Part shown: piece by piece, positions 17,617-61,690 of the stretch
Numbering within the stretch: the stretch's first letter is position 1
Layout of the letters: each line of letters begins with the position of its first letter
Source: Candidatus Woesearchaeota archaeon
Lineage (GTDB): Archaea; Nanobdellota; Nanobdellia; Woesearchaeales; ARS49
NCBI GenBank assembly: GCA_014729505.1
Contig: WJJS01000013.1
Span: 8,457 to 72,456 of the forward strand
Direction: 5' to 3'
DNA length: 64,000 nucleotides
The notes under the pieces: model-generated
Told to the model about the DNA's origin: nothing
The model's input: the letters and a program-made list of their open reading frames with translations, nothing else
Database searches by the model: none
Translations under genes and position numbers: made by a program

Positions 17617-18486
17617 TTATGCGGATTCCACATACAAGCGAGAAATTTCCCGTTCCCGTCGCGAAGAAAAATACGCTTCCTGTGCCGCTTCAAAATACGA
17701 TATCGCTTCATCAGGCTGTTCATGAACCGCATGAAATCTCGCAAACCATTCCAGTAGTGCTGATCTACGCACACCAACAGCACGATTCAAGTGACGCTGC
17801 ATAAACGTTACTGCACGTTCCTTATCTCGCAGAGCATACGTATCAGCAACAGCACAAATACTGCCCATGTCACGCAACGACGACGCACCAAGAGTATAAC
17901 GACGCGCACATGATTGATGAAAATGGTCAATAAAAGAATAGTGCTCAGTGGCAAACTCCTCAATAACAACACGAGGCATTTCACGACCATCGAGCGCGCG
18001 ATGCAAACGTTCATGATACCTATTATTTACTTTATTACGAAACCACCCATGAGCACCACTGTACTCCGGGGGAGGATCATGAAGCACTGTATCACTACTT
18101 GCCAGCAAACGATACCCAAAAGGTGAAAGAACCGCGTACTGACGCGTTTTTGGCAACTTCTCACACCAACTATTAGTTACAGCATATTCTGGCGGCAGTT
18201 GATCACAGTCTACGGGCAAACAATACTTGTGCTGCCCATCAAACAAGTGAACATCACCATCCTCTCTGCACAAGCGCAGCTGAAAGACTTCCTTATATGA
18301 CGGTTGCCACGTCATACCCTGTTCATCTGGGAAAAAAACCTGGTGCTGCTCATCTGCAGCAAGTACACACCATTCAGATTCAATAATGCCAATCATCTTC
18401 TTCCTCCACCGCAGGAGAGCGCAGTGCGCGACGATACTCTTGACGAACATGTCTGCGAATACCTCCCGCACGTTCATAGGCTTCAT
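17617..18486 (-). CDS. hypothetical protein (GC-rich, R-rich; helical-repeat-like C-terminus)
   Basis: 289 aa in a local high-GC stretch (about 58%) unlike the neighbours; no known motif. The start may be the internal MIGIIESEW. Confidence 0.45.
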   Translation of the reverse strand: MKPMNVREVFADMFVKSIVAHCALLRWRKKMIGIIESEWCVLAADEQHQVFFPDEQGMTWQPSYKEVFQLRLCREDGDVHLFDGQHKYCLPVDCDQLPPEYAVTNSWCEKLPKTRQYAVLSPFGYRLLASSDTVLHDPPPEYSGAHGWFRNKVNNRYHERLHRALDGREMPRVVIEEFATEHYSFIDHFHQSCARRYTLGASSLRDMGSICAVADTYALRDKERAVTFMQRHLNRAVGVRRSALLEWFARFHAVHEQPDEAISYFEAAQEAYFSSRREREISRLYVESA

Positions 18487-18688
18487 CCAACTCCTCCATT
18501 GTCATACACTCCAAACGCTGCTCAATCGCATCAAAATCCCGTTGTGTCTTGATTCTGCGACGCTCAATGGAATACTCCTGCAGTATCCGATCGTGAAGAC
18601 GAGGTACAGAAAAACAACACGAGATAACACCCACAGCAATAGCAGCATATAGTACCACTCGCGGCCGTTCATAGTCGTAAATTGCCAT
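18380..18688 (-). CDS. small membrane-anchored protein (GC-rich islet)
   Basis: 102 aa; one N-terminal TM (VVLYAAIAVGVISCCF) then a charged R/E-rich tail; same GC-rich composition as the overlapping downstream gene. Confidence 0.4.
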   Translation of the reverse strand: MAIYDYERPRVVLYAAIAVGVISCCFSVPRLHDRILQEYSIERRRIKTQRDFDAIEQRLECMTMEELDEAYERAGGIRRHVRQEYRRALRSPAVEEEDDWHY

Positions 18689-18877
18689 ACTCCTCCTGTG
18701 TTTTGAGCCTTAAAGAACTTTTTTTCCATCATCTGCCATCACTTGCAAAGAAAGCGAAACATGCAACGATCGCAGCGAAGATTATTCGACAAAGAACACC
18801 ATAACCGAAAATCCTGCGACCAGTCTGCAAAACATTTATATACGTCACTATCGCCTTAGTCATTAAAGAGGTGCAAC

Positions 18878-19936
18878 ATGCGACGATTGTTCAACTACAG
18901 CCTACTCACGGTGTTATTTTTACCTGCAGCTTATGCATCAAATCCTGCAGTTGATCGTGTTTTAACCTTTATTCGCGATATCTTCACATCAATCTTCAAT
19001 CCAAGTGCAGAAGGCCTTGGCATTTTTCTAAAATTCCTCATTATTGTTACCACATTTGGCATCGTCTACGAACTGCTGCCAAGCGACTGGAAAAAAGGAG
19101 TGCGCGGCGTTATTGCAGGAGGACTCGCTCTTGGCGCAGGACTCGCCATCCCAACAAGTCTTGCACTAACATCAGGCACACTGCTTGGCGCCATCGTCGT
19201 CGCAGTCATTTTCCTTATACCCTTCGCACTCTTATCCTTAGCAACATATCACGGTATGAACTATGTAGACACGAACTGGAAATATCCGGCCTTTGCACTA
19301 ATGTGGCTGGTCTATTTCACCATACTCGTGTACTTCCTGGCACATTGGGGGCAACTGCTTCAAGCATTCGCATGGGTCTTTTTTGTCGTACTCATCCTTG
19401 CCATCATCTCGCCAATCATCGTACTTGTCCTCATAGGTGTCGCCATTCTCGGCGGCGAAACACGAGAAGGAACGTCATGGAAAAACCTCATGAAAAACAT
19501 CTCACGCAATGACGTCAAAAACAAAGCAACAGATGCCAACAAACATCTGGGACGCGCACAAGCATTACTGCGGGCAGTACCAAAAACCAAGAGCGTCGAA
19601 GCAAAACATGCCAAAATACGCGAAGCTCTATCAGCATTGCGCGCAAGCAAGAACTCTGTAAACCTTATCGCGGCACAAGCAGCAAAACTCTTAGCCGATA
19701 AAGAAATCGCAGATACCACAAAAAAAGACGCCGTGCGAGACGCGCAAGACCTAGTAGGAGAACTCAACGCACTCATGTTCGACCTGCATCCACTGCTCGA
19801 TGAAGAGAAAGGCGATACCATCGATACCTATCTCAAGGATAACGATTACCATGAAAAGGATAAATCAAAGAATCCGATCGCGTTTTTCATGGATCGGATC
19901 AGCATAGTGTCACAAATCACCCGTCAGGGCGATTAG
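18878..19936 (+). CDS. polytopic membrane protein with signal peptide and soluble helical C-terminal domain (paralog 1)
   Basis: Signal peptide (LLTVLFLPAAYAS), about 6 TM segments, then a K/A-rich helical cytoplasmic or extracellular domain. TATA-like tttatata about 40 bp upstream. Confidence 0.6.
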   Translation: MRRLFNYSLLTVLFLPAAYASNPAVDRVLTFIRDIFTSIFNPSAEGLGIFLKFLIIVTTFGIVYELLPSDWKKGVRGVIAGGLALGAGLAIPTSLALTSGTLLGAIVVAVIFLIPFALLSLATYHGMNYVDTNWKYPAFALMWLVYFTILVYFLAHWGQLLQAFAWVFFVVLILAIISPIIVLVLIGVAILGGETREGTSWKNLMKNISRNDVKNKATDANKHLGRAQALLRAVPKTKSVEAKHAKIREALSALRASKNSVNLIAAQAAKLLADKEIADTTKKDAVRDAQDLVGELNALMFDLHPLLDEEKGDTIDTYLKDNDYHEKDKSKNPIAFFMDRISIVSQITRQGD

Positions 19937-19983
19937 GCGCAAACATTAATAAATATCACATTATTACAAAGGCTCGAGGTGCA

Positions 19984-21144
19984 ATGATTATGAAAAAGAG
20001 GAACCTATTATCATTCGGATTCTTAATTACAATTTTTTTGGCCAGTATGGTCTATGCGCAAAGCCCAGTGGATGTTATTATTAGCATCTTTGCAGGGATT
20101 GGTCGCGCATTAAGCGGGATCGGCAATGCGCTCTTTGGCAGTCTAGATACGCAAGCAGGAGTCATCGGACTCTTACAATTTATAGCGTGGCTCTTAATGG
20201 CAGTCGTGACCTATGAACTCTTACGATTTGTCAATCTAAGCAAAGGCGTACGCATCATCATTGGTGCACTCGTCTCACTAGGTCTTGTACTCGTCATACC
20301 AGGAACACTCATCTTGACACTGTTTGCACAGTTCGGCGCACTAGTAACGCTTTTTGTGCTCGTCATCTTTGGAGCAGTACTCACCTTAGCAACAAGCTGG
20401 CTCAAACCAATAGACAGCTGGCAGAAACTGCTCATCGTCTGTCTCGTCTGGGGTAGCTTTTTGTGGATCATGTGGAATCTGTTCCTCGGCATCAACACCT
20501 CAAATGCTATTCCAGGAGAACTCGCACAATGGCCCATGGTCGTCTTTACCATTTATGGCGTAGGTGTTCTTGCATGGCTCATCTTGAGCGTGCTGTTTTC
20601 AGGCGGACAAACAGTTGCAGAAGGAAAAACATTCAAAGCCATAAAAAAAGCTGCAAGCAAAAAATGGGAATCAGCAGTGCTATCAAAAGTAGGTCGCGAA
20701 ACAGAACGAGTAGCATCATCACTAGACAAACATTACAACGAACTCAAATCGAAAGGAGCAACATGGGATGCAAACGCGCTCAAAGATAATTTTTGTCAAC
20801 CAGTAGAACTCGAACTGGCAAAGATTTCTTCACTTCTCAACGTCGAAGTAAGCAAAATGGATGCGGTCTCAGGAAAACCCCATCAAACATTAGTGGACTA
20901 TATCAAAAACAATGTGATAAAATTTATTGAAGCAACAGGAAATCCTACCATCGGAGGATTCCACCTCAAGCACGGAGGACTAGAACCATGGCTCAAGGAA
21001 GGAGGATGGTTGCACAGTAATTGGGAGACTGGCGATAATGTCAAGTCAGACCTTGCAACGTACTGCACGGCAGAATTAGGGCCTGCTCTTGCCACCTTCC
21101 ACGACATGCTCTACAAAGTCAATAAAGATCTTCCCAACCTATAA
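19984..21144 (+). CDS. polytopic membrane protein with signal peptide and soluble C-terminal domain (paralog 2)
   Basis: Same architecture as 18878-19936 (signal peptide FLASMVYAQSP, about 6 TM, soluble C-terminal domain); similar size. Confidence 0.6.
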   Translation: MIMKKRNLLSFGFLITIFLASMVYAQSPVDVIISIFAGIGRALSGIGNALFGSLDTQAGVIGLLQFIAWLLMAVVTYELLRFVNLSKGVRIIIGALVSLGLVLVIPGTLILTLFAQFGALVTLFVLVIFGAVLTLATSWLKPIDSWQKLLIVCLVWGSFLWIMWNLFLGINTSNAIPGELAQWPMVVFTIYGVGVLAWLILSVLFSGGQTVAEGKTFKAIKKAASKKWESAVLSKVGRETERVASSLDKHYNELKSKGATWDANALKDNFCQPVELELAKISSLLNVEVSKMDAVSGKPHQTLVDYIKNNVIKFIEATGNPTIGGFHLKHGGLEPWLKEGGWLHSNWETGDNVKSDLATYCTAELGPALATFHDMLYKVNKDLPNL

Positions 21145-22142
21145 TGGCTTTCCAACGATTTGTCCGGATGCGCGCAGAACTCTCGGTACTCTACAATAAA
21201 ATAGACGGGCCGAAAGTCAAAACAACAAGCGACGTAGACGATTTAGAAAAGAAATTCATCCCTCTGGCCGCCGAGCGTGTACAAACATTTCTTAAACACG
21301 ACGGTAAAACAAGACTGCACGTTATCCAACAAGAATATAACGAGCTAGGCGTGAAAAATCTCGACACTGTCAACAAAAGCGTGTTTCGCGCACCAAGTGC
21401 AACAATGCCCCAACTGCTCGAAGCAAGCAAACATGTCAAAGTCGCTACTATCGATAAAGAAATCGTACGACAAGAAGAGAAAAAAGCAGAAGCACAACGA
21501 ACAATCGACGAAGTCAAGAATTGGATCACAGATAACTACGGCGCGGTAGCAGGAGCTGCAGACGCAGCCAAAGCAGAACGGGCGACAAAACGAGCAGAAG
21601 AAGACGAAGCTCTTGAAGCAGTCACAGAAAAAAAAGCAGAACTACAAGCACTGAGTGGCGCAAACGCACTAGCAAAAGAAATATTCTTGCGTAGTCAAGC
21701 AGGCATGCCCAACCCACAAATACGCAGCGAACTCATCAGCGAAGGTAATGCAGAAGCAGACGTAGACGCAGCATTTGCACTTACCGATCCACTCATGATG
21801 GCATTGAGTGCACGACTTGATACGTGGAAAGAAAAAAACACTGCGAAAAAAGATGCAGAAGCACAGTACCAAGAACTCAAAAGTCAGATGCGCAAAGGCG
21901 TCAAAGCAAAAGAGAAACGCAAAGCAGCAGAAGAACAACTAGACGAACTACAAAAAAATCGCGTACAAATTATCACTCTAGGACTCGATCTTCAAGAACT
22001 CTGGCGCTTGCACACGCAGATAGTGAGTATCGACTTGACAGGTACGTACGACGAACAACAACTCAAACTCGAAATACTACACTTCAAAGCGACGATCTAC
22101 CATCTCACACACCGCGTTCTCACACCGCTTATCGAAGCTTAG
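21144..22142 (+). CDS. hypothetical alpha-helical/coiled-coil protein
   Basis: 332 aa; ATG overlaps the stop of the preceding gene (taATGg), suggesting translational coupling; E/K/A-rich helical regions. Confidence 0.5.
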   Translation: MAFQRFVRMRAELSVLYNKIDGPKVKTTSDVDDLEKKFIPLAAERVQTFLKHDGKTRLHVIQQEYNELGVKNLDTVNKSVFRAPSATMPQLLEASKHVKVATIDKEIVRQEEKKAEAQRTIDEVKNWITDNYGAVAGAADAAKAERATKRAEEDEALEAVTEKKAELQALSGANALAKEIFLRSQAGMPNPQIRSELISEGNAEADVDAAFALTDPLMMALSARLDTWKEKNTAKKDAEAQYQELKSQMRKGVKAKEKRKAAEEQLDELQKNRVQIITLGLDLQELWRLHTQIVSIDLTGTYDEQQLKLEILHFKATIYHLTHRVLTPLIEA

Positions 22143-23548
22143 TAAAACCTGGCAATTCTTGTCAGTTTTCGCACAACATCCTGACGTTCTTCAGTACTTA
22201 AAGGCAAATCCAAAAGACATTCATAACAGGAACGGGCTCCTACAGCATCCGGACGATCCTGCTGGAGATACGCTTCGGCCATCCATTCAAGAGAACGACG
22301 CTGGAACGTCTCGCTGGCTTGAGAGTTTATACGAGACAAGAACGGAATCGCAAACGGAGCGCGAAACCCTGCCTTGTTCGAAAACACTTCTAAGTCATTC
22401 TCAATAATACCTCGCCAACCCGCATCAGCAGCACGCCAAACGTCTGCATAAATACGCTGCGCTTTCTCCCGACTCTCAGGAGTACCAAGATCAAGCAAGG
22501 AACGCGCATACGTGATCTTTGCAGTCATATCCGGTAAGTCAAGCGTAGCAAATCGGCCAGCAGCTGTCGACGCATCGCCATTCGCGTATGCGTTATACGC
22601 GCGCTTAAGCCAAAAATTCAAAACACTCGGTTCAGGCAAACGAGACCAGCGAGTCTGTCCACGAGGTTGAGGACGTCTAGGCAAAGTCGCCCTTGCAGCA
22701 GAGCCGCCTCCAGACATACCTGCAAGTCCGCCCCACACCTGTCTATACATATCAGTTAAATCAGTCATTGCACTTCCTCCACCACTTGGCATGGCGCCGG
22801 CGGCTCCAGCAGCAGGCACACTACCAGCTCCAGTCGAGCCACTAGGTGCGGGCGAAGCCAGCCCCCCACGTTCAGCAACATAGCCGGCCAAACGGCTCAG
22901 CTCGTCACGTGTTAATCCTAATTGTTCGCGCGCTGTTTCAAGATCTTCAGTGGCGCGATCACGTTCACGTTCAGCAAACGCATAATTCGTCTCGAGTTGT
23001 TCGCGATTACGCTGTTCATGCATCAAATCAATTTCAAGATCAACAACATTGGCTCTTTCATCACTTAACTCTTGTTCGACCTCTTCAATACGGCGTTCGT
23101 AATCTGCAATCTGACGATCAAGATAACGCACTTCAACTAACGCGTCGACAAGATCTCCGACAAGATCGTGAACATACTGACGAGCCTCACCAAGATCTCT
23201 TCGATTGCGCTCATCAACCGTTAACCACGCATCACGCTCATCACGACGATCAGCACGATCATCAGCTAACGCATCCATCCATGCATCACGCTCATCACGA
23301 TGATTCGCATCAGCAAGACGACGAGCAGCATTACGGTCAGCATACAAACGACGACGTTCAAGATCACGATCAGTATAAAACTGCCTTCGTTCATCAGCAC
23401 GATCATCAACCCACGCATCACGCTCATCACGACGATCAGCACGCTCATCACGACGATCACGCAACACACGAACAAGCGCTTGAAAGAGCGCTCCCGCTGG
23501 CAAATTGCTATAATCAAATCCACTCATTCCTATATGTTGTCTAGCCAC
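22139..23548 (-). CDS. ORFan protein: N-terminal RDERDAW tandem repeats, coiled coil, Gly/Ala/Ser linker, helical-repeat C-terminal domain (GC-rich island gene E)
   Basis: 469 aa. About 26-aa repeats (DRRDERDAW.DD.AD) encoded by three copies of the about 27-nt motif (g)catcacgctcatcacga(c/t)ga within 23225-23445; GC about 60%. Confidence 0.55.
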   Translation of the reverse strand: MARQHIGMSGFDYSNLPAGALFQALVRVLRDRRDERADRRDERDAWVDDRADERRQFYTDRDLERRRLYADRNAARRLADANHRDERDAWMDALADDRADRRDERDAWLTVDERNRRDLGEARQYVHDLVGDLVDALVEVRYLDRQIADYERRIEEVEQELSDERANVVDLEIDLMHEQRNREQLETNYAFAERERDRATEDLETAREQLGLTRDELSRLAGYVAERGGLASPAPSGSTGAGSVPAAGAAGAMPSGGGSAMTDLTDMYRQVWGGLAGMSGGGSAARATLPRRPQPRGQTRWSRLPEPSVLNFWLKRAYNAYANGDASTAAGRFATLDLPDMTAKITYARSLLDLGTPESREKAQRIYADVWRAADAGWRGIIENDLEVFSNKAGFRAPFAIPFLSRINSQASETFQRRSLEWMAEAYLQQDRPDAVGARSCYECLLDLPLSTEERQDVVRKLTRIARFY

Positions 23549-23567
23549 TGTCGTTACTTATTGTTGT

Positions 23568-24671
23568 TTATAGATCGTCAAAGTCGTAATCACTCGGGTC
23601 CGGCACTCCGCCAAACATATTATAGACTTCATGAGCCTGTTCACAAAAACCGTCAAGAACCGTCCTCATTTCTTCAGTTCCCAAACTTCGTTGGAAGCCG
23701 CGATACTGCGGACTGCGACGAAACGCTGCCAAACGAGCAGCATCAACACGCCGAGCAAGTTCTCGCTGCGCATCAGTTTGTGAATACGAAGAGGTCGTTA
23801 ACGGATCCGCAGCAGCATCAGGAAGATCAGCAGGAACTCTGCTGTCACGCTCAAAAGCTGCAAGATCTTCATCAGCAACATAAATGTCTGCCACCTTTGC
23901 AATACGATGCCAATCTTGCTGCATATTCGTACCATATTGTGCCATCACACCAAGAATGGCCATTCTACGCTGCAAAGAGCTTATCTCTGACTGTTGGTCT
24001 TCAATAATTTGATACAATTCGCCTGCTCGTCGATCAACACGCTTGACAAAGTCATGCGTTCGATAACCCCGAGGGCCAATCTGTGAAGGTCCGTCTTCAC
24101 TCTTATCATCAGGATAGCGAGGCGCATCACCGTTAGCATCAGGTCGCATATACTCGTGCTCACCAACACTAGTATCAGTCATGGTATGAGAATCTGAAAG
24201 ATCTGGGTTGCCAGGTTCTTCATGCGCTGCTTCAATAGCCATACGATGGACATTCGTATTTCTTGGAAACACAAACATGCGTCGCACCTGATCCAAAAAG
24301 TGATTTTCCATCAAAAAATTCTGCAAAGTGGTCCGTCCATAGTCTGAACGAAGCATATGACGAAAACGATTAAAATAATCGCCCGCAGCAGGTGATTCTC
24401 CAGCCCGATGAGCTTCATAACCGCGAACAACTTCTCGCCAGCAAATAGGACCTGTCTCATCGCGCACCGTGTTAGCGCCCATGCGATTACTGTACTGATC
24501 ATAATTCCAGATGACAAGATCAATTAACAATTTTGCATCACGGGCTTCATCAACACTTCCACCATGAAAACCAAAACCATTCATAGCAACGTGGCGTCGT
24601 CGACGCGGAAAATCTTCTCTTTGTTCACTCATAATAACCCCTCCTAGGTTCTTCACAAGACGAGTAACCAA
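23568..24671 (-). CDS. ORFan protein (GC-rich island gene D)
   Basis: 367 aa, no recognisable motif, acidic C-terminus (…DYDFDDL); co-directional and closely spaced with neighbours. Confidence 0.55.
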   Translation of the reverse strand: MVTRLVKNLGGVIMSEQREDFPRRRRHVAMNGFGFHGGSVDEARDAKLLIDLVIWNYDQYSNRMGANTVRDETGPICWREVVRGYEAHRAGESPAAGDYFNRFRHMLRSDYGRTTLQNFLMENHFLDQVRRMFVFPRNTNVHRMAIEAAHEEPGNPDLSDSHTMTDTSVGEHEYMRPDANGDAPRYPDDKSEDGPSQIGPRGYRTHDFVKRVDRRAGELYQIIEDQQSEISSLQRRMAILGVMAQYGTNMQQDWHRIAKVADIYVADEDLAAFERDSRVPADLPDAAADPLTTSSYSQTDAQRELARRVDAARLAAFRRSPQYRGFQRSLGTEEMRTVLDGFCEQAHEVYNMFGGVPDPSDYDFDDL

Positions 24672-24727
24672 TTTCCTCTTTTTAAATCTTTCTATTATTC
24701 ACTACTCCAGAGTGTTAACCGTTGGCT

Positions 24728-25420
24728 CTATTCTCGTTCGACAAAACCATACTTTTCAGGACAGGGACGCAACTGCAGCACCTGATACATACTCACTGCC
24801 TGACCACACACTATCTCAGCTACCAGACGCATTTCTTCAGTATGCAAACCCTCAAGAAAATCATCAAAATCCGCAGAAGCACCAAACGCCGCCACACGAT
24901 CAATGCTCAACGCAGGAGCACACTCGCGCTGCTCATCAGTCATAGCACGCAAAGAGGTTGTCTGATACCGATCAACGCCCTGACGACGACGATCATCTGC
25001 GTCATCAAACACCGCGGCATCAGTTTCAGGAATAACAAGACCAACACGCTCTGCAAAAGAGGCAAAGTCAGAAAGCAAATGCAAACCATACTGTGCCACT
25101 CTAGCATACGCCTCAGGAACAGCAGGCCCCGCAGCGCCATACTCCACACTCGACGGATCTTGCCCGCGAGATTCCCAGACCCTTCTCACGACCGGATGCA
25201 ACCCGTCAAAATCAACAGAACCCATAGGCCTACCCAAACGCGGCGCAACAAACAACTCGTACAATGCACGACCCTCGCGCGTCTTCAGTGTCGGAGGCTC
25301 GTCAACGCCCAAACGCGAGCCAATAGCATTAGAAAGAATCACGACAAGATCTGACCAGGACCTTGCAGCAAGACGCAACCGCGCTTCGTCCTCATCCAAA
25401 TCACGTTGTCGACGATTCAT
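24728..25420 (-). CDS. ORFan protein (GC-rich island gene C)
   Basis: 230 aa; stop/start overlap with the upstream gene (25417-25420) suggests operon coupling. Confidence 0.55.
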   Translation of the reverse strand: MNRRQRDLDEDEARLRLAARSWSDLVVILSNAIGSRLGVDEPPTLKTREGRALYELFVAPRLGRPMGSVDFDGLHPVVRRVWESRGQDPSSVEYGAAGPAVPEAYARVAQYGLHLLSDFASFAERVGLVIPETDAAVFDDADDRRRQGVDRYQTTSLRAMTDEQRECAPALSIDRVAAFGASADFDDFLEGLHTEEMRLVAEIVCGQAVSMYQVLQLRPCPEKYGFVERE

Positions 25421-25941
25421 TCTTCACCCTTCTTATACAGCCCGCGAATAGCATCTCCAAGCGTGTCAGGCGCTTCACGATCAAAGTCACGCATCAAGCG
25501 ATCGTAATTATCCGCCTTAGGCTGCAATCGCGCAATGATCCGTTCTGCTTTTTCTAGACGAGAGCGTAAATTCGTTTGCTCGCCACGAACTCTTTCTGTC
25601 ATGCGAGAAAAATACGCCGACGCATTGGCAGGAACAAAGGGCTTTTGTGCACGATCTGGAATAATACCTACTTCCTTTGCCGTCTGTTCAAGAGCACTAC
25701 CCATACCCACCATATAATCAAACCATTGACGCACTCCTGAATCAGCAATATTGCTAACGATTGTCGCGTACGCACCATCTGGCGCATCCTTTGATTCAAT
25801 AACATCCCGACAAAGCGTCTGGGCTCTTGGATCTGCAGACAACCATAACTCTCCGAGCGCTCGATATTGTTTTAGCACTCCTTCAGCATGGCGCTTTGCC
25901 TGCAATGCTCGTTGTACTTCATCATCTGATTTGTTTGCCAT
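25417..25941 (-). CDS. ORFan protein with C-terminal LGDxIxxLxxxGEE motif (GC-rich island gene B)
   Basis: 174 aa; C-terminus ...PDTLGDAIRGLYKKGEE parallels the C-terminus of the upstream 556-aa protein. Confidence 0.55.
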   Translation of the reverse strand: MANKSDDEVQRALQAKRHAEGVLKQYRALGELWLSADPRAQTLCRDVIESKDAPDGAYATIVSNIADSGVRQWFDYMVGMGSALEQTAKEVGIIPDRAQKPFVPANASAYFSRMTERVRGEQTNLRSRLEKAERIIARLQPKADNYDRLMRDFDREAPDTLGDAIRGLYKKGEE

Positions 25942-25943
25942 TT

Positions 25944-27614
25944 CTACTCCTCCCCTCTTCCTAATAATTTGTTAATCACATCTCCCAAGGGATCTTCGAT
26001 GGGCTCTTGGAGGCCCTTTATCAAAGTTCCGAAAGAATCACGCAATTGCTCTGCAGCCTCAACATGTTGTGCCATTTGCTGCAAACGCTCATCGAGCTGT
26101 GCCTGCCAGGGAGGCACTTCTTCCGATCCTGCATTCGCAGGATACTGCACTACACGTTGCTTTTCAGACATCATCGGACCGCCCAGGCGAGACCGAATAT
26201 CCTGGAGCAATGCCACCACAAGAGCCGTATCCGGCGAGATAGCAGGTTGAATATCTTGTAAGCGTTGCTCCACAACGTCAAGACGACGAGATAAGGCACG
26301 TACGTCATCAGGTGCTTTCACACTCGGAGCATCGCAGGCATCACTCGAATCGCCACGTTGATCTGCAGTGCGCTTTTTAGCACTGTCAGACTGCTGACGA
26401 TCAAGTGAAGCACGCAACGCATCCATTTCGTCATGCAAAATAGAGACCGCTTCATCATTACGTTCTTGGCGAACCTGTTGTGTACGCAAATACGCAACGA
26501 TATGTTCTTGAGCCCGCGCCGCTTGTTGTGACGCCACACGCATCTCCTGCATCATCTCATCTCTTAACATTTCAAAATCGTTATACGTTCTACTCTCCTT
26601 TTCGGCATCTCTTGCACGACCAGCATGGTAGCGCACCAACGCGTGCAAGCGCTCAATATGCACACTCTGCTCATCAATACGGGCCAAAAGATCAGCAATC
26701 AAACCGCCCTTCTCCTCAGACTCGAGATGAGCAACTGCTTCTTCAATAGACGCTAAACGCACAGCACGTTGTTTGGTCTGCTCAATACTCTCTGTTAGTA
26801 CAGCCACAACTCGCTCATTATATCCTTCATGTATTTTTCGCGACGTCTCTTCAAGAGTAGCAATATGTTCTTGAGATAAACGACCGTGTTCCTTTAAAAT
26901 CGAGGCCAATCGCTGCAAACCCTCAAACGCATAGCGTATACGAGGGCCTGCCTGATCCGGGTCGAGAATCGTTTTTAACACCTCGCCTGTTAACGGCTTT
27001 CCCAACTGTCCATGCGTCTGCAAATAAGTGACTGCAGACTCCACAATCACGTCCAGCACAGTATTAAAAATCCTGCGCGTTCGAGGATCAAGACTCTCTG
27101 CCAACTCCACATACCACCGCATGCATCGATTATCAGAAAATTTTTTCGGTGAGCGAGACTTGAGCGCTGCGCGAGCCGCCAAACAATATCGAAGCGGCAC
27201 GGTATCAGAACCGTAAAGAACAGTCGAGACTTTTCGCATACTTTCTCGAAGAGAACAATCCTGTTCAATACTTGCAGCCCTCCTGCAGAACTCATCAAAA
27301 GCAGCACGACCCCAGTCTGATTTCAAACGTTCGCGAGTCAAACGATAATACTCTCTGGCAGGTCCCTTCTTATCAAGTCTCACTAATCGATAGCCGTCAA
27401 GAGCAGACTGAGCTCGCTTGGACGCTTTTGAAAATTGGCGCTGCAAGTACAATGCATCCTGACGCGCGTCATGCTCTACAGGCACATCCTGCAATATGCG
27501 CGCCAAGGGTTCTTCATACTTCTGCTCTCCTCGACCAGCAATGTCCTTACTCATTTCCCGTTGCCATTTGGTTCCCATCTTAAATCTGCCGTTCACAAGA
27601 CGATACTGCAGCAC
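25944..27614 (-). CDS. ORFan long coiled-coil protein with C-terminal LGDxIxxLxxxGEE motif (GC-rich island gene A)
   Basis: 556 aa, extensive coiled-coil (E/R/Q/A-rich heptads), C-terminus ...EDPLGDVINKLLGRGEE. First gene of the five-gene minus-strand block. Confidence 0.55.
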   Translation of the reverse strand: MLQYRLVNGRFKMGTKWQREMSKDIAGRGEQKYEEPLARILQDVPVEHDARQDALYLQRQFSKASKRAQSALDGYRLVRLDKKGPAREYYRLTRERLKSDWGRAAFDEFCRRAASIEQDCSLRESMRKVSTVLYGSDTVPLRYCLAARAALKSRSPKKFSDNRCMRWYVELAESLDPRTRRIFNTVLDVIVESAVTYLQTHGQLGKPLTGEVLKTILDPDQAGPRIRYAFEGLQRLASILKEHGRLSQEHIATLEETSRKIHEGYNERVVAVLTESIEQTKQRAVRLASIEEAVAHLESEEKGGLIADLLARIDEQSVHIERLHALVRYHAGRARDAEKESRTYNDFEMLRDEMMQEMRVASQQAARAQEHIVAYLRTQQVRQERNDEAVSILHDEMDALRASLDRQQSDSAKKRTADQRGDSSDACDAPSVKAPDDVRALSRRLDVVEQRLQDIQPAISPDTALVVALLQDIRSRLGGPMMSEKQRVVQYPANAGSEEVPPWQAQLDERLQQMAQHVEAAEQLRDSFGTLIKGLQEPIEDPLGDVINKLLGRGEE

Positions 27615-28088
27615 TTTTGCTAGTGCCTAAGCAAGGTACAAGGCCCTTCACTCAGCATTCTGCACCATCCTGCGCGCAACGAGCAAAAACTCTGCGCCTT
27701 ACAGGAACTCTCACTTTTTCCATATTTTTTCACTATTGCAAATTAATGTGCGAATTTCTTTTTATACTTTTTGTTCTTCTATATTCTTTCCTCTATTTTC
27801 TCTTGTATTGCCCTTCTTAGTTGTAATGTTTTGTATATTATGTTACATATATTCTACAATAACCCATTTGTTTCAAATCCATTTCTCCAGACGAACCAAT
27901 CTTGCCAATTCCCGTCGGGAAACGGAAACACACTACAAGAACACCCCAGAATTCGGCAGAGGAGAACGAGCACATCGCATCATCTGGTTCGCGAAAAAAA
28001 CACTTCAAACACCAAACAAAATAGGCCTTTAGTCAGGTCATTTCAGAGCCTTTACTGCGCAAAATCTTTAATCAATAGAGGCTGTCAG

Positions 28089-28240
28089 GCATAATGCCAG
28101 AATCACTGAGAAATCGACAACAACTCCGTTTTTTCGTCTGAAATCTCGCCCTCGCAAGATTCTGAGATAACTTACTTTGTCGATATTTTCCCAGAAATTT
28201 TGTTATAATGCCGTCAGCGCAGGGATAATGCCAGAATCAC
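28089..28240 (+). repeat. two copies of 17-bp direct repeat (g)ataatgccagaatcac plus a partial third copy (ttataatgcc) in the AT-rich spacer
   Basis: Copies at 28089-28106 and 28224-28240; a shorter ataatgcc at 28203-28210. Each copy carries an ATG (MPES...) opening short ORFs of 15 and 44 codons. Confidence 0.6.
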
Positions 28241-28500: not shown

Positions 28501-29058
28501 ATGATCATTGATTTCTTTGTCGCGATAATGAGAAAGCAGTGTCGGGAAAATCAAAAATTATTTATAAACTCGTTGCTTTGCATCCTCATGAATATCCAAC
28601 TCGAACCACGAGAACCAAGCACACACGGCGTCGACGAATTAGCCACCACGCTACTTGCACGCTTCGGACTCCTACCACGCAAACGCGACAGTGCAGCAAC
28701 AATGCACCAGCTACTCCTAGAACTCACCGAAAAAAAGAAAGAAGCGATAAAGCACAAACAGCCGGAATTAGGCATCCTTACCGTCGAAGAAATGGGCAAA
28801 CACGCGGGCATTGCACGGCAAACGATGTACGATTATTTATCCCGCTGGTTATCTCTGCATATCCTGAAAAAATCAAGCTTCGTGCAAGGCGGCAAAGTCA
28901 TCATCGGCTACGAGCTTAACGGCACCTCACTTGAAAGCGCATTTAGAAAAGCAGAAACAGTGATAAAAAATCACGTCGAACAAAGCTTCAAAATCCTCGA
29001 CACCATGCAAAAGGAAATCAAACGAGAAAAACTCAAGCGCGCTACATCCAGCGAGTAA
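28501..29058 (+). CDS. HTH transcriptional regulator
   Basis: HTH-like segment LTVEEMGKHAGIARQTMYDYLSRW; the real start may be an internal Met (MNIQLEP...). Confidence 0.55.
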   Translation: MIIDFFVAIMRKQCRENQKLFINSLLCILMNIQLEPREPSTHGVDELATTLLARFGLLPRKRDSAATMHQLLLELTEKKKEAIKHKQPELGILTVEEMGKHAGIARQTMYDYLSRWLSLHILKKSSFVQGGKVIIGYELNGTSLESAFRKAETVIKNHVEQSFKILDTMQKEIKREKLKRATSSE

Positions 29059-29563
29059 GCGGCACTTCAAGACCAACAATATTCTTTTGAATCTGCAATT
29101 GGCGAAAACGAGGATGCAGAGCAATACCAATCTTTCCCTTCTTTACCTTCTTTACAAAAGGAACGCCCTTCTCGACGAGACGCGCCACATAACTGCCCAC
29201 CACGCTTGTCGACGTGTTCAAATGCGTTGCGATCTGCGCATACGTGACATACGTAAATGATTCAGTAAGCGACAAAATAGCCCAAAATACTGCCTTTTCT
29301 CGAGTGTTTAACGGCGAGACTGCAAAGGATTCCCTTCTTGTTTTTCCCGATACAACGAGAAACAGTTCATCAATACGGTCTTGAAGATGATTGATACGAT
29401 TATCTAGTTCGCACAAAAAATCAAAGTTCGTCTGCACTTCTGTCGTGTTTTCGTTAATCGCGGTTCTATGTTCGTCAATTTCTCGTCGCATAGAGTGCAA
29501 AATATCTTCAAATATTTTAGCCCCCGATCTAGACAATAACTCTTTTTCTCGAATACATACCAC
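29042..29563 (-). CDS. coiled-coil plus winged-HTH regulator (paralog of 29585-30307)
   Basis: N-terminal coiled coil; C-terminal HTH (TYAQIATHLNTSTSVVGSYVARLVEKGVPF). Confidence 0.55.
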   Translation of the reverse strand: MVCIREKELLSRSGAKIFEDILHSMRREIDEHRTAINENTTEVQTNFDFLCELDNRINHLQDRIDELFLVVSGKTRRESFAVSPLNTREKAVFWAILSLTESFTYVTYAQIATHLNTSTSVVGSYVARLVEKGVPFVKKVKKGKIGIALHPRFRQLQIQKNIVGLEVPLTRWM

Positions 29564-29584
29564 CCCTTTGGTACTTCTTACGTT

Positions 29585-30307
29585 CTAATCTTCAGTGAGC
29601 CTGCGACCTTTAAATACTTTTCTGTTCGATGAAAAAACACGTTCCCTTCCCGACGAGACAACATCGATCAGACCCTCTTTGACCAATTCTTCGAGCAAGC
29701 GATAAAACGAACTCCTACTGCACAATTTCTGTTCATCAACTACAATCTCGCGCAAACTCGTACCGGAAATGCGCTCGTACTTTGCGAGCAACGATAACAG
29801 TGTTTTTTTTATGTACTCCTTGCTCTTTCGCGAAACGTTTTGAACAATCTTTTGCTGCAGATTACTCGTACGAGGACGTTCGCTCACTTTTGGCACCTCA
29901 ACAGGCACGATTTTAGGTCTGCGCGCCTCTTCAAGCAAGGTCTCCATACGCGCCATGCGCCTCTCGAATGCCTCAATACGCTCCAGTTGGCGATCAACAG
30001 GATACTCACTACGCAGAATATGTATCACTTCTGCGCGACCCAGAGAGTCCCGTTGAGCCTTGACCACCCTATTAATAGTACTTCGATGAGCATTGTTTTG
30101 CTCACGTAAGTACTGCACCCATCGAAACAAGTTCTGATTATCCTTTTTTGCCTGGGCCAATTCCTTTTGCACCCCATCCATATCTGTGCGAACTTTGGCA
30201 AACGAAGACTTCACTTGAGCGTGCAAGTCATCCACTTTTTTTTGCGTCTTCCAAAAGACCATCGAGTAATAAGAAGTGGCAGTGCTATAAAATTGTTTCG
30301 AACACAA
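29585..30307 (-). CDS. coiled-coil plus winged-HTH regulator
   Basis: N-terminal coiled coil; C-terminal wHTH (ISGTSLREIVVDEQKLCSRSSFYRLLEELVKEGLI); the palindromic element lies immediately upstream. Confidence 0.55.
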   Translation of the reverse strand: MCSKQFYSTATSYYSMVFWKTQKKVDDLHAQVKSSFAKVRTDMDGVQKELAQAKKDNQNLFRWVQYLREQNNAHRSTINRVVKAQRDSLGRAEVIHILRSEYPVDRQLERIEAFERRMARMETLLEEARRPKIVPVEVPKVSERPRTSNLQQKIVQNVSRKSKEYIKKTLLSLLAKYERISGTSLREIVVDEQKLCSRSSFYRLLEELVKEGLIDVVSSGRERVFSSNRKVFKGRRLTED

Positions 30308-59496: not shown

Positions 59497-60711
59497 TTAG
59501 GAGAGCAAACTCTCATAATCCTCAAGAACAATACGATCAACCTGCTCAAGATTCCTCACCAGAGAGAGCCGACCATCACCTAGCTCAGTACAACGCTTAG
59601 CAAAAGACATTGCCTTCTTATCAAGACCAATACCAACAATACTCACCGTAATACCTGCATCCTTTGCCAAGGAAATAGCACGCAATGTCTCCGTTTCAGG
59701 CGCATCACCGGCAGTGGGTAAAGCATCAGTCAACACAATAAGATGTTTGGTTACGCCTTCAAGAGGAAAAAGACGGGCAGCACGCTCGAGCATTACAGCA
59801 AAGTCAGTCTGTTTTGAGGCGCGCACACGAATAATCCTTTGAAGCAACACACTAAAATCACTCGTTGGAGCAACAGCAGTATGCACATCCTTGCTAAACA
59901 CAATCAAACCTACCTTATCCTGTTGCGACAAGGCCTTAAACGCCAAAGCCATACCAGCACGTTTTGCCACAGCAATCTTTTTACCCTTCATACTCGCAGA
60001 AGCATCAACAGCATACACGATATAGATCGTTCCCAACTTGTGACGCGTATGAGTACGCAAATCCTCTTTATGCAAACTCTTATGACTGCGCCGTACTGCC
60101 ATACGCACACTCTCGCGCACAGCAAGATCACGGTACGAATCACCCTTCTTTGTAGGCCGTGTTTCATGACGATCACCATACTGCGAAGATTCCTTAAGGA
60201 GTTTTTCACCAAACATGCCACGAGGAAGAACACGTTCCAATTCACGAGTATACATCACGAGCGCGGCAAGCTGAATACCCTGATCAGTAAACTGACCAAA
60301 ATCATCAATAATCTTCTTTCGACGCATCTGCTCAACAGCAGCGTCCATATTCTTCTTCATCTCCTTTTGAAACTCAGGAATACGAACATTCTTCTCAACA
60401 TACGATTCATCAAAACCAGTAAGATAACGAATAATTTTTGGACCAAGAATCTTCTTAGCCATCTGAAAATTATTAACAAGCTGTTCAAAAGAAAGATCAG
60501 GCGTAAAAGAATGAATATTACGATTCAAAGCCTCCTCAATTACTGCACCCTCATCAATAGTCTTCTTATCACCTTCAAGAACAGAATGCATCAAGGCCTC
60601 ATCAAGACTCGTCTTCAGCTTCCCTTCCGCCTCTTCAGCCTTAGTAAGTTGTTTTACCTCGACCTCAAGGTCAAAGGCCATCACCACCGTCAAGACCCAT
60701 ATCACGAGCAA
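59497..60711 (-). CDS. von Willebrand factor A (VWA) domain protein, partner of the upstream AAA+ ATPase
   Basis: MIDAS DASASM in IVYAVDASASMKG; C-terminal VWA fold; 41-nt overlap with the ATPase gene. Confidence 0.8.
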   Translation of the reverse strand: MLVIWVLTVVMAFDLEVEVKQLTKAEEAEGKLKTSLDEALMHSVLEGDKKTIDEGAVIEEALNRNIHSFTPDLSFEQLVNNFQMAKKILGPKIIRYLTGFDESYVEKNVRIPEFQKEMKKNMDAAVEQMRRKKIIDDFGQFTDQGIQLAALVMYTRELERVLPRGMFGEKLLKESSQYGDRHETRPTKKGDSYRDLAVRESVRMAVRRSHKSLHKEDLRTHTRHKLGTIYIVYAVDASASMKGKKIAVAKRAGMALAFKALSQQDKVGLIVFSKDVHTAVAPTSDFSVLLQRIIRVRASKQTDFAVMLERAARLFPLEGVTKHLIVLTDALPTAGDAPETETLRAISLAKDAGITVSIVGIGLDKKAMSFAKRCTELGDGRLSLVRNLEQVDRIVLEDYESLLS

Positions 60712-61690
60712 ATTTTTCCAGCTCTTGGGCGAGGAATTCCTTAGGCGTCTGCAGGTACTTGACAGAAGGTTTGAGTTCGATACGATGACTCAATACAGAA
60801 ATAATAGCCTCTTGCACTTCCTTCATAGACACCGTTGAAAGACCATGAAGAAACGCATTAGCCTGTGCACGTTCAAATAATCCAATCGATACACGCACAG
60901 AAGGCTTCTTTTGCACATCCTTATGCTCACGAATACGACGAACAAAAACAATTAACAAACGCAAAACCTTCTGCGGAAACTCAACATCCAAGGTCTTGCC
61001 CTTTTTTCTCACAATCTGCTCTTCTAAATCCTGACTGTCAGGATATGACATGTGCACCACATCAACGCGATCCATAAAAACAGCAGACAATTTCTCCGTT
61101 GCAGCAGCCTCTTCAGGATTCATCGTGCCAATAAACAAGAAATTCGTCGGAACCTCAACACGAAAACCGCTCAATGTAGCAGTTCCCTCCTCTAAGACCT
61201 GCAACAAACTATTCTGAATCTTTTCAGGAGCACGATTAACCTCATCAAAAAACAAAATACCATGATTAGCACGAAAAATTTTTCCAGGACTAAACGCTTC
61301 CGGCGATGAAGGACCAAACTTAAGAGCCATAATTGGATCAATATCTCCAAGCAAATCCTCAACAGTCAAATCAGGACTTCCCTGCACACGAACAAAACGC
61401 TCAGCACCAGGAATCCTTGCAGTCCTCGGTTGTTTTTTGCGACAAGCAGTACAGCGCGGTTGTTTTGGATCACAATGAAACTCGCAAGTAGACAAGGTTT
61501 TTGGAGGCAACAGCTTAGCAACGTTTTTTGCAAGCGTCGTCTTGCCAATGCCGGGAGCTCCAACAATCAAAAGATGACGATTCATCAAAAGCGCAGATTT
61601 AAGCTGAAACTTCGTACGATCCTGACCCAAAATATCAGTAAAAGGATCATCGCCAGTAAATTGCTTGGCAAAATCAAATTTCATTGCCAA
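60671..61690 (-). CDS. AAA+ ATPase (MoxR/ChlI-like) with Cys4 insertion
   Basis: Walker A GAPGIGKT, Walker B ILFFDEVNRA, GTMNPEE; CEFHCDPKQPRCTAC insertion between Walker A and B. Confidence 0.85.
   Translation of the reverse strand: MAMKFDFAKQFTGDDPFTDILGQDRTKFQLKSALLMNRHLLIVGAPGIGKTTLAKNVAKLLPPKTLSTCEFHCDPKQPRCTACRKKQPRTARIPGAERFVRVQGSPDLTVEDLLGDIDPIMALKFGPSSPEAFSPGKIFRANHGILFFDEVNRAPEKIQNSLLQVLEEGTATLSGFRVEVPTNFLFIGTMNPEEAAATEKLSAVFMDRVDVVHMSYPDSQDLEEQIVRKKGKTLDVEFPQKVLRLLIVFVRRIREHKDVQKKPSVRVSIGLFERAQANAFLHGLSTVSMKEVQEAIISVLSHRIELKPSVKYLQTPKEFLAQELEKFARDMGLDGGDGL

Follow-up and report, generated by a model that had tools for sequence, protein, structure and literature searches.

The operon and its duplicated modules

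Carried on the minus strand of a 64-kb stretch of DNA (the window, meaning here the whole stretch analysed) from a Candidatus Woesearchaeota archaeon, a member of the DPANN archaea, is a predicted operon of five genes (Table 1). Genes 1 and 2 end in a common C-terminal peptide, referred to here as the tail, which belongs to a longer element, module A. Both tail-bearing open reading frames (ORFs) are present in the ORF list of the window and both are annotated by NCBI; the annotated GF342_02625 starts at an internal ATG at 27554 and has 536 residues, and GF342_02610 has 354 residues from an ATG at 24632, which is preceded by TAGGAGGGG. The 556-aa protein is helical and rich in Arg and in Asp/Glu. 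The 469-aa protein encoded by gene 5 comprises an N-terminal part with a DERADRRDERDAW repeat and a coiled coil, a Gly/Ala/Ser/Pro linker and a C-terminal helical domain, in which hints of tetratricopeptide repeats (TPR) are sub-threshold only (E of 0.09–0.21).

Table 1 Features of the predicted operon (positions in the window)
Feature	Position	Strand	Description
Gene 1	25944..27614	(-)	556-aa ORF; NCBI GF342_02625
Gene 2	25417..25941	(-)	174-aa ORF; NCBI GF342_02620
Gene 3	24728..25420	(-)	230-aa ORF
Gene 4	23568..24671	(-)	367-aa ORF; NCBI GF342_02610
Gene 5	22139..23548	(-)	469-aa ORF
Module A, copy 1	25947..26141	(-)	Residues 492–556 of the 556-aa protein
Module A, copy 2	25420..25632	(-)	Residues 104–174 of the 174-aa protein
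Tail 1	25947..25991	(-)	Last 15 codons of gene 1, PLGDVINKLLGRGEE
Tail 2	25420..25464	(-)	Last 15 codons of gene 2, TLGDAIRGLYKKGEE
SD-like sequence in tail 1	25947..25955	(-)	GGGGAGGAG, codons G-E-E
SD-like sequence in tail 2	25424..25430	(-)	AGGGTGA, within codons K-G-E
Module B, gene 3 copy	24743..25099	(-)	C-terminal ~120 residues of the 230-aa protein
Module B, gene 4 copy	23580..23945	(-)	C-terminus of the 367-aa protein

Common to the 230-aa and 367-aa proteins is a second C-terminal module, module B (E = 7e-12, z > 20), which is distinct from module A; the existence of this second pair with a module of its own indicates that module duplication and reuse recur within the operon. A candidate N-terminal motif, RxH(V/I)xMxGFx(F/Y), is present on genes 4 and 5. 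Adjoining the operon are two paralogous multi-pass membrane proteins with cytoplasmic helical tails. The GC content at third codon positions (GC3) of the operon genes is 0.34–0.43 and is not above that of the rest of the window. On this evidence the local GC bump does not stem from a recent horizontal acquisition out of a high-GC donor but from the Arg/Ala/Asp/Glu-rich composition of the proteins. A search for flanking att-like repeats and an integrase found none, and the window contains no tRNA or Rfam matches.

DPANN archaea carry a large share of genes without an assigned function. Homologue searches with the 556-aa, 174-aa and 367-aa proteins against a word index of 5.8 billion proteins returned self matches only, as did an exhaustive HMMER search of 1.84 billion representatives with a profile of the 556-aa protein and the module of the 174-aa protein. 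Scans of genome, metagenome and viral contigs recovered nothing beyond the query proteins, no exact match to the 174-aa protein was on record in assemblies, and no island protein scored above threshold in Pfam, NCBIfam, PHROGs or PADLOC. In the PDB, sequence searches recover generic coiled coils only; the module profile matches canonical coiled coils, with a myosin rod chimera at E = 0.0016 and APC and keratins weaker. Foldseek finds no significant PDB match for a model of the 174-aa protein (pLDDT 57) or of the 469-aa protein C-terminus (pLDDT 64), and owing to the low confidence of the latter model and its insignificant Foldseek matches, the notion that this C-terminus is a TPR domain receiving the acidic tail is unsupported. 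Both proteins and the module are orphans within the databases searched.

Module A and its C-terminal tail

When anchored at the stop codon, the two tails are identical at 8 of 15 positions, the maximum among 5,671 pairs in a C-terminus-anchored comparison of window ORFs of at least 100 aa; the runner-up value of 6 occurs only once. This bears out the original prediction of a common peptide at the very C-terminal end of both proteins. The pattern LGDx[ILVM]xx[LIVM]...G[DE][DE] has only two matches in the six-frame translation of the window, each exactly 14 residues before a stop, and a shuffle test of the tails alone gives z = 6.5 (0/2000). Each tail is predicted to form a 12-residue amphipathic helix behind a Pro-containing break, followed by an acidic G-E-E end, with a hydrophobic moment of about 2.0 (top 1–3% of shuffles) and a net charge of -1 in one tail and 0 in the other. 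These properties fit a shared interaction element.

The similarity does not stop at the tail. BLASTP aligns the 556-aa and 174-aa proteins over 71 columns (65 and 71 residues) with 30% identity and E = 1e-4, so that the two proteins, originally taken to be otherwise unrelated, are alike for about 65 residues upstream and unrelated only in their N-terminal parts (shuffle z = -0.3). After removal of the last 15 residues the similarity of the module is still significant (z = 4.0, 2/500 shuffles). Copy 1 consists of the sequence PANA, about five coiled-coil heptads, an EPIEDP break and the tail helix LGDVINKLLGRGEE; copy 2 has PANA, a 6-residue insertion, the coiled coil, a break at residues 157–161 and the tail helix at 162–173. 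The heptad a and d positions are aligned and hydrophobic (L/L, V/I, I/M; L/L, M/A, A/L, F/Y, L/F), 9 of 10 such columns being hydrophobic in at least one copy and 8 in both, and the pattern extends over at least 4 heptads, in keeping with a coiled-coil oligomerisation module. An AF2 single-sequence model of the 174-aa protein, of low confidence (pLDDT 57), is all-helical, with a helix at 107–156, a break and a helix at 162–173. Analysis of g-e' charges reveals no preference for a 556/174 heterodimer relative to homodimers. Judged by sequence, each tail terminates a copy of one ~65-residue paralogous coiled-coil module.

Synonymous sites of the module are saturated (pS 0.81), and 12 of 21 identical residues are encoded by different codons. 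A recent DNA duplication or gene conversion is therefore rejected; the module was copied long ago, and at the amino-acid level the peptide has been kept since. Preservation of the a and d positions despite this saturation indicates that the whole module is under protein-level selection. Similarity beyond the motif, adjacency of the genes and synonymous divergence together characterize module A as a paralogous domain arising through tandem duplication.

As no homologue was found, conservation of the tail is judged from this one sequence pair only. The pN of the tail is 0.35 versus 0.54 for the upstream part, and its identity is 8/15 against 13/50 in the rest of the module, a marginal difference (p = 0.05). 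The original prediction was to be abandoned if the likeness proved restricted to these two genes, as a local duplication of 3′ ends with no conservation. The first half of this description applies, since the similarity is confined to the two genes and no homologue was found in the databases searched. The peptide is retained despite saturation; without its last four residues, which overlap Shine-Dalgarno-like (SD-like) sequences, the tail has 5 of 11 identities and no significant excess over the module (p = 0.18).

Shine-Dalgarno-like sequences within the tails

Embedded in the last codons of gene 1 is GGGGAGGAG. Its end and the downstream start codon of the 174-aa gene are 5 nt apart (…GGGGAGGAGTAGAAATG), and, given its sequence and spacing, it would act as the ribosome-binding site of that gene. 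In gene 2 the corresponding AGGGTGA, similar to the GGTGA half of the Shine-Dalgarno sequence, is followed after 3 nt by the start codon of the 230-aa gene, which shares bases with the gene 2 stop codon (GAATGA); this site makes a weaker case than GGGGAGGAG. At the junctions of the operon, TAGAAATG and an ATGA overlap point to tight coupling. Motifs of the GGAGG or GAGGTG type precede the starts of genes 2–4 and of four neighbouring island genes, and across the window SD pentamers are 1.6–2-fold enriched before the starts of long ORFs. Protein ends rich in G, E and K that are encoded over SD-like sequences also occur in other coupled gene pairs of the window. Ribosome-binding sites may thus explain part of the terminal (K/R)GEE identity.

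Possible roles and comparison with known systems

The reading that we prefer, and to which we give a little less than an even chance, is that the duplicated module A is a shared assembly element of subunits encoded by one orphan, coupled operon. An old partial tandem duplication would have placed the module on two adjacent genes of a lineage-restricted, translationally coupled set of five, where it would unite the 556-aa and 174-aa proteins in one complex encoded by the operon. The two coiled coils could pair with each other, or each could bind at an equivalent position on a third subunit; the terminal helix would cap or extend the interface so formed. The (K/R)GEE identity is probably maintained in part at the nucleotide level by ribosome-binding sites. 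A bolder version, in which the operon encodes a new DPANN-restricted multi-subunit assembly wired by modules A and B and by the N-terminal motif of genes 4 and 5, with the tail as a docking helix of a new type, is distinctly unlikely.

A functionless relic of an old 3′-end duplication, with (K/R)GEE kept as downstream SD sites, is a rather unlikely account of the tails. The placement of GGGGAGGAG and AGGGTGA before the next start codons, the recurrence of SD-type motifs in the island, their enrichment in the window, the comparable ends of other coupled pairs and the loss of the tail's excess conservation without its last four residues all speak for it. The LGDxIxxL part, however, is located 21–44 nt upstream of the next start, beyond any SD window, and retains 5 of 8 identities, with both Leu encoded by different codons; a and d positions are kept past synonymous saturation, and unlike SD-like sequences (GGAGGAG versus GGGTGA) encode the same G-E-E. 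An autonomous docking peptide of the MIM1 or HbYX kind, binding a single outside partner encoded elsewhere in the genome, for example an AAA+ ATPase or a ring, is improbable. The likeness to docking tails invoked in the original prediction holds in so far as a short amphipathic helix at the extreme C-terminus follows a Pro-containing break and ends in an acidic residue, and the peptide is kept; it fails in that the peptide is the end of a larger homologous coiled-coil domain and not an isolated element. Nor does the island offer the proposed common partner, as it has no AAA+ or other ATPase gene and no ring or shell gene. In the 64-kb window there is no MIT-domain ATPase (Vps4/CdvC), PAN/Cdc48 or proteasome gene, and the sole AAA+, a MoxR-type ATPase, lies 33 kb from the island and forms a pair with a VWA protein.

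A cargo-targeting or export peptide, analogous to those of encapsulins, to microcompartment encapsulation helices or to secretion signals and perhaps acting via the neighbouring membrane proteins, is very improbable. The presence of a C-terminal L-G peptide of about 10–15 residues on side-by-side genes recalls the encapsulin-cargo design, and the adjoining membrane paralogues with their cytoplasmic tails would suit an export role. No HK97-fold/Linocin_M18 shell was found, however, among the scanned window ORFs of at least 150 aa, and the island has no secretion ATPase. The chance that the tail is a membrane-targeting amphipathic helix, anchoring both proteins in the manner of the MinD or FtsA C-terminus, is slighter still: the high hydrophobic moment of the terminal helix and the membrane-protein neighbours are compatible with such a role, but the tail is neutral or acidic and ends in two glutamates, and other membrane-related signals are absent. 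To our knowledge, known membrane-targeting helices are net basic.

If module A does end in a true docking peptide, it would be an entry point into a wholly uncharacterised DPANN protein complex. More generally, what looks like a C-terminal motif shared by unrelated proteins can turn out to be the terminal part of a duplicated coiled-coil domain, the part that has been preserved best, and ribosome-binding sites within the 3′ ends of operon genes can mimic peptide conservation.

The HbYX motif of proteasomal ATPases and activators has a hydrophobic residue, Tyr and any residue as its last three. The tails would likewise be functional elements at the extreme end of a protein, but they end in G-E-E with no penultimate Tyr, and their hosts are not ATPases, so the suggested likeness to HbYX is not upheld. 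The MIM1 consensus is (D/E)xxLxxRLxxL(K/R), with a spacing of L-x3-L-x2-L. Like the MIM1 of ESCRT-III proteins of the Vps2/24/46 class, the tail is a C-terminal amphipathic helix after a break, common to several paralogous helical proteins, and it matches the hydrophobic i, i+4, i+7 positions (L-x3-I-x2-L) and the Asp in front of them. Where MIM1 has Arg ahead of its second Leu the tails have V/A, and where it has K/R behind its third Leu they have L/Y. The proposed MIM likeness thus amounts mainly to the hydrophobic spacing. Neither host gives an ESCRT-III/Snf7 or PspA/Vipp1 signal in Pfam or NCBIfam at E ≤ 0.1, and the Foldseek matches to CdvB2 and Vipp1 are insignificant (E of 2.5–6.6, TM < 0.3, model pLDDT 57). 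MIM1, a leucine-rich C-terminal helix, has been reported from eukaryotes and Asgard archaea, and crenarchaeal CdvB lacks it (PMC7240154), which also argues against an autonomous peptide of this kind.

Encapsulin cargo peptides include NTGGDLGIRK of native T. maritima, in which LGI is the key contact, PLTVGSLRRGG and the consensus DGSLGIGSLKG (PMC7925596). As in encapsulin cargo, a short C-terminal L-G peptide recurs within one operon on proteins of unlike length and with different N-terminal regions. The tails, LGD(V/A)I…G(K/R)GEE, differ in having no GSL/LGI core, in an acidic instead of a basic end and in following a coiled coil instead of a flexible Gly/Pro linker; in native systems, moreover, the shell gene comes directly after the cargo gene (PMC7925596).

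The acidic -EE end, together with the faint TPR-like signals in the last operon protein, also brings to mind chaperone C-termini. The EEVD C-termini of Hsp70 and Hsp90 dock into the TPR carboxylate clamps of co-chaperones. The present tails, however, end in GEE, and the 469-aa protein has sub-threshold TPR matches and no significant fold match. Heteromers of tandem-duplicated coiled-coil paralogues provide a further comparison. The pairing of the 556-aa and 174-aa proteins is putative and their g-e' charges do not favour a heterodimer, but, as in such heteromers, the a/d register is kept, the genes are adjacent and coupled, and the remainder of the proteins is diverged or unrelated.

A shared C-terminal module

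At the C termini of the first two proteins of an orphan five-gene operon (556 and 174 residues; exact matches to NCBI GF342_02625 and GF342_02620) is a 15-residue tail with the pattern LGDxIxxLxxxG(K/R)GEE. A regular expression for this motif finds two sites only in the six frames of the window, each exactly 14 residues before the stop. The presence of the same peptide on two adjacent proteins, as put forward in the original prediction, is real and not a product of chance: in a C-terminus-anchored alignment the tails share 8/15 identities, the maximum among 5,671 ORF pairs of the window, with a shuffle z-score of 6.5 (0/2000).

Although the two proteins had been described as otherwise unrelated in length, their similarity extends over a domain, referred to here as module A. 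The BLASTP alignment spans 71 columns, covering 65 residues of the longer protein and 71 of the shorter (30% identity, E = 1e-4); it opens with an identical PANA and contains one 6-residue indel. The similarity remains significant without the last 15 residues (z = 4.0, 2/500), and no relationship is seen between the N-terminal parts (z = −0.3). Both copies carry hydrophobic residues at the a and d positions of about five heptads, in the same register, and the only PDB matches of a module A profile are to classical coiled coils (myosin rod chimera, E = 0.0016; APC and keratins more weakly). An AF2 model of the 174-residue protein (single sequence, pLDDT 57) comprises a long helix (residues 107–156), a break (157–161) and a terminal helix (162–173), and the helical hydrophobic moment of the tail falls in the top 1–3% of shuffles. 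Together, these features give the anatomy of module A: PANA, coiled coil, Pro-containing break, amphipathic helix and G-E-E-COOH. The description that fits the tail best is that of the conserved end of a coiled-coil module present in duplicate.

No relatives were found. A word-index search of 5.8 billion proteins with the 556-, 174- and 367-residue queries returned only the queries, an HMMER profile run exhaustively against 1.84 billion cluster representatives returned only the two window proteins, pattern scans with tblastn confirmation across genome, metagenome and viral contigs gave nothing, and Pfam, NCBIfam, PHROGs and PADLOC held no match above threshold. The similarity is confined to these two genes and derives from local duplication, which the original prediction had named as part of what would speak against it. 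The duplication is old: synonymous differences between the two 3′ ends are saturated (proportion 0.81), ruling out a recent DNA copy. Codons differ at 12 of the 21 identical residues, within the tail at both Leu, one Gly and both Glu. At non-synonymous sites divergence is 0.54 in the upstream part of the module and drops to 0.35 in the tail, and the excess of identity in the tail over the rest of the module is marginal (8/15 versus 13/50, p = 0.05).

Operon layout and gene junctions

Genes 1–5 (556, 174, 230, 367 and 469 residues) form one minus-strand operon running from 27614 down to 22139. Gene 1 ends …AGA GGG GAG GAG TAG AA ATG, this ATG being the start of gene 2, and gene 2 ends …AAG GGT GAA GA ATG A, in which the start of gene 3 overlaps the gene 2 stop codon; from these junctions the operon is predicted to be translationally coupled. 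At the end of gene 1, GGGGAGGAG reads as a strong Shine–Dalgarno (SD)-like sequence, and AGGGTGA at the end of gene 2 resembles the GGTGA half of one. Owing to these sequences, the final (K/R)GEE of the tails is probably dual-coded, its four codons specifying the peptide and also being constrained by the putative ribosome-binding site of the next gene. GGAGG- or GAGGTG-type motifs lie 3–8 nt before the starts of genes 2–4 and four neighbouring island genes, and are missing there from genes 1 and 5; SD pentamers are 1.6–2-fold enriched ahead of long-ORF starts in the window.

Shared by genes 3 and 4 is a second C-terminal module, module B, which ends …EEMRxV…CxQA…Y…PxPxxYxF, is unrelated to module A (copies 32–41% identical, E = 7e-12 to 1e-11, z > 20) and likewise has no homologues elsewhere. 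A possible N-terminal motif of genes 4 and 5 has marginal statistics (z = 3.1, 10/1000 shuffles); if real, it would support placing the start of gene 5 at the GTG of position 23548. Gene 5 carries the DERADRRDERDAW repeat in its N-terminal coiled-coil region; a TPR-like receptor in this gene is unsupported.

Features of the island and its surroundings
Feature	Position	Strand	Details
Gene 1, 556 aa	25944–27614	−	terminates in PLGDVINKLLGRGEE
Gene 2, 174 aa	25417–25941	−	terminates in TLGDAIRGLYKKGEE
Module B, genes 4 and 3	23580–23945 and 24743–25099	−	C-terminal, about 120 residues
Possible N-terminal motif, genes 5 and 4	23510–23545 and 24567–24602	−	R(R/Q)H(V/I)xM(N/S)GF(G/D)(F/Y)
Internal DNA and protein repeat	23225–23471	−	DERADRRDERDAW, about three copies, inside 469-aa gene
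Arg-over-Lys-biased proteins	17617–27614	−	289, 102, 469, 367, 230, 174, 556 aa
Two tandem paralogous multi-pass membrane proteins	18878–19936 and 19984–21144	+	28% identity over 228 aa
21-nt direct repeat	28086–28106 and 28220–28240		CAGG(C/G)ATAATGCCAGAATCAC, copies 95% identical
Three small helical proteins	28501–30307		185, 173, 240 aa; directly upstream of operon
Lys/Glu-rich coiled-coil protein, 988 aa	46648–49614	+	16% Lys, 19% Asp+Glu, GC3 0.28
MoxR-type AAA+ ATPase (339 aa) and VWA-domain protein (404 aa)	59497–61690	−	ATPase gene directly upstream of VWA gene

Genomic setting and composition

The window is chromosomal, from a Candidatus Woesearchaeota (DPANN) archaeon, with archaeal housekeeping genes around the island (MetRS, GAPDH, ribosomal proteins L1, L10 and S15, Rpo7, CCA-adding enzyme, XPD, Trm1, RtcA and NucS); the island is not marked by an integrase, an att-like repeat, a tRNA or an Rfam element. 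In its seven Arg-biased proteins R/(R+K) is 0.64–0.94, versus about 0.2–0.59 in other window genes, and Asp+Glu is 14–20%. The local GC bump at 21–27 kb is an amino-acid composition effect, because GC3 of these genes is not raised; recent import from a high-GC donor is rejected on the same ground.

On the opposite strand, converging on the operon, are the paired membrane-protein genes and a following gene for a 332-residue coiled-coil protein. Both membrane proteins, neither of which is assigned to a family, combine a signal-like N terminus with a helical tail on the cytoplasmic side. The three small proteins are possible local regulators. Winged-helix matches of the 173-residue protein (HTH_36, HTH_24, HTH_11) are all sub-threshold, the 185-residue protein has a weaker Crp-type HTH match (E = 0.018), and the 240-residue protein has no Pfam match at E ≤ 0.001. 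The 21-nt repeats, which may be an operator pair, lie in a non-coding gap of unusual length (~0.9 kb) that separates the operon from the divergent putative winged-helix gene (28501–29058); a palindrome, GGCAT-N-ATGCC, lies inside the first copy, and Rfam finds nothing in the gap. The 988-residue protein has extreme AT skew and a sole, sub-threshold Pfam match (HAUS1, E about 1e-3).

Likely role and comparison with known tails

The leading, tentative reading is assembly: module A would bring the 556- and 174-residue proteins together in one operon-encoded complex, as suggested by its coiled-coil architecture, by the translational coupling of the genes and by the recurrence of shared modules in the operon. 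That the tail is instead a functionless relic under SD constraint seems unlikely; without (K/R)GEE it retains 5/11 identities, no significant excess over the rest of the module (p = 0.18), but the LGDxIxxL core, 21–44 nt ahead of the next start codon, falls outside any SD window and cannot be explained by SD constraint. Least probable of all is a membrane-targeting helix. The sequence family of module A, known from this single sequence pair, is new, and the kind of feature is ordinary.

The likeness to docking tails proposed originally holds in part. The HbYX motif needs a penultimate Tyr and is rejected, as the tails end G-E-E. Of MIM1, the tail has the i, i+4, i+7 hydrophobic spacing and the preceding Asp, but not the basic residues conserved in that motif. 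No ESCRT-III signal is seen in the host proteins. The sole AAA+/ring ATPase in the window is of MoxR type; it lies 33 kb away beside a gene for a VWA protein and has no evident link to the island. An autonomous MIM-like peptide docking on an external ATPase or ring is improbable. MIM1, a leucine-rich C-terminal helix, has been reported from eukaryotes and Asgard archaea, and crenarchaeal CdvB lacks it (PMC7240154). That the tail serves as a cargo or secretion signal is very improbable: no HK97-fold shell gene was found among the scanned window ORFs of at least 150 residues, although one short C-terminal peptide on dissimilar proteins of one operon is an encapsulin-like design (PMC7925596). Encapsulin targeting peptides, which include NTGGDLGIRK and PLTVGSLRRGG (PMC7925596), have an LGI/GSL core and a basic end; the tails lack this core and end acidic.
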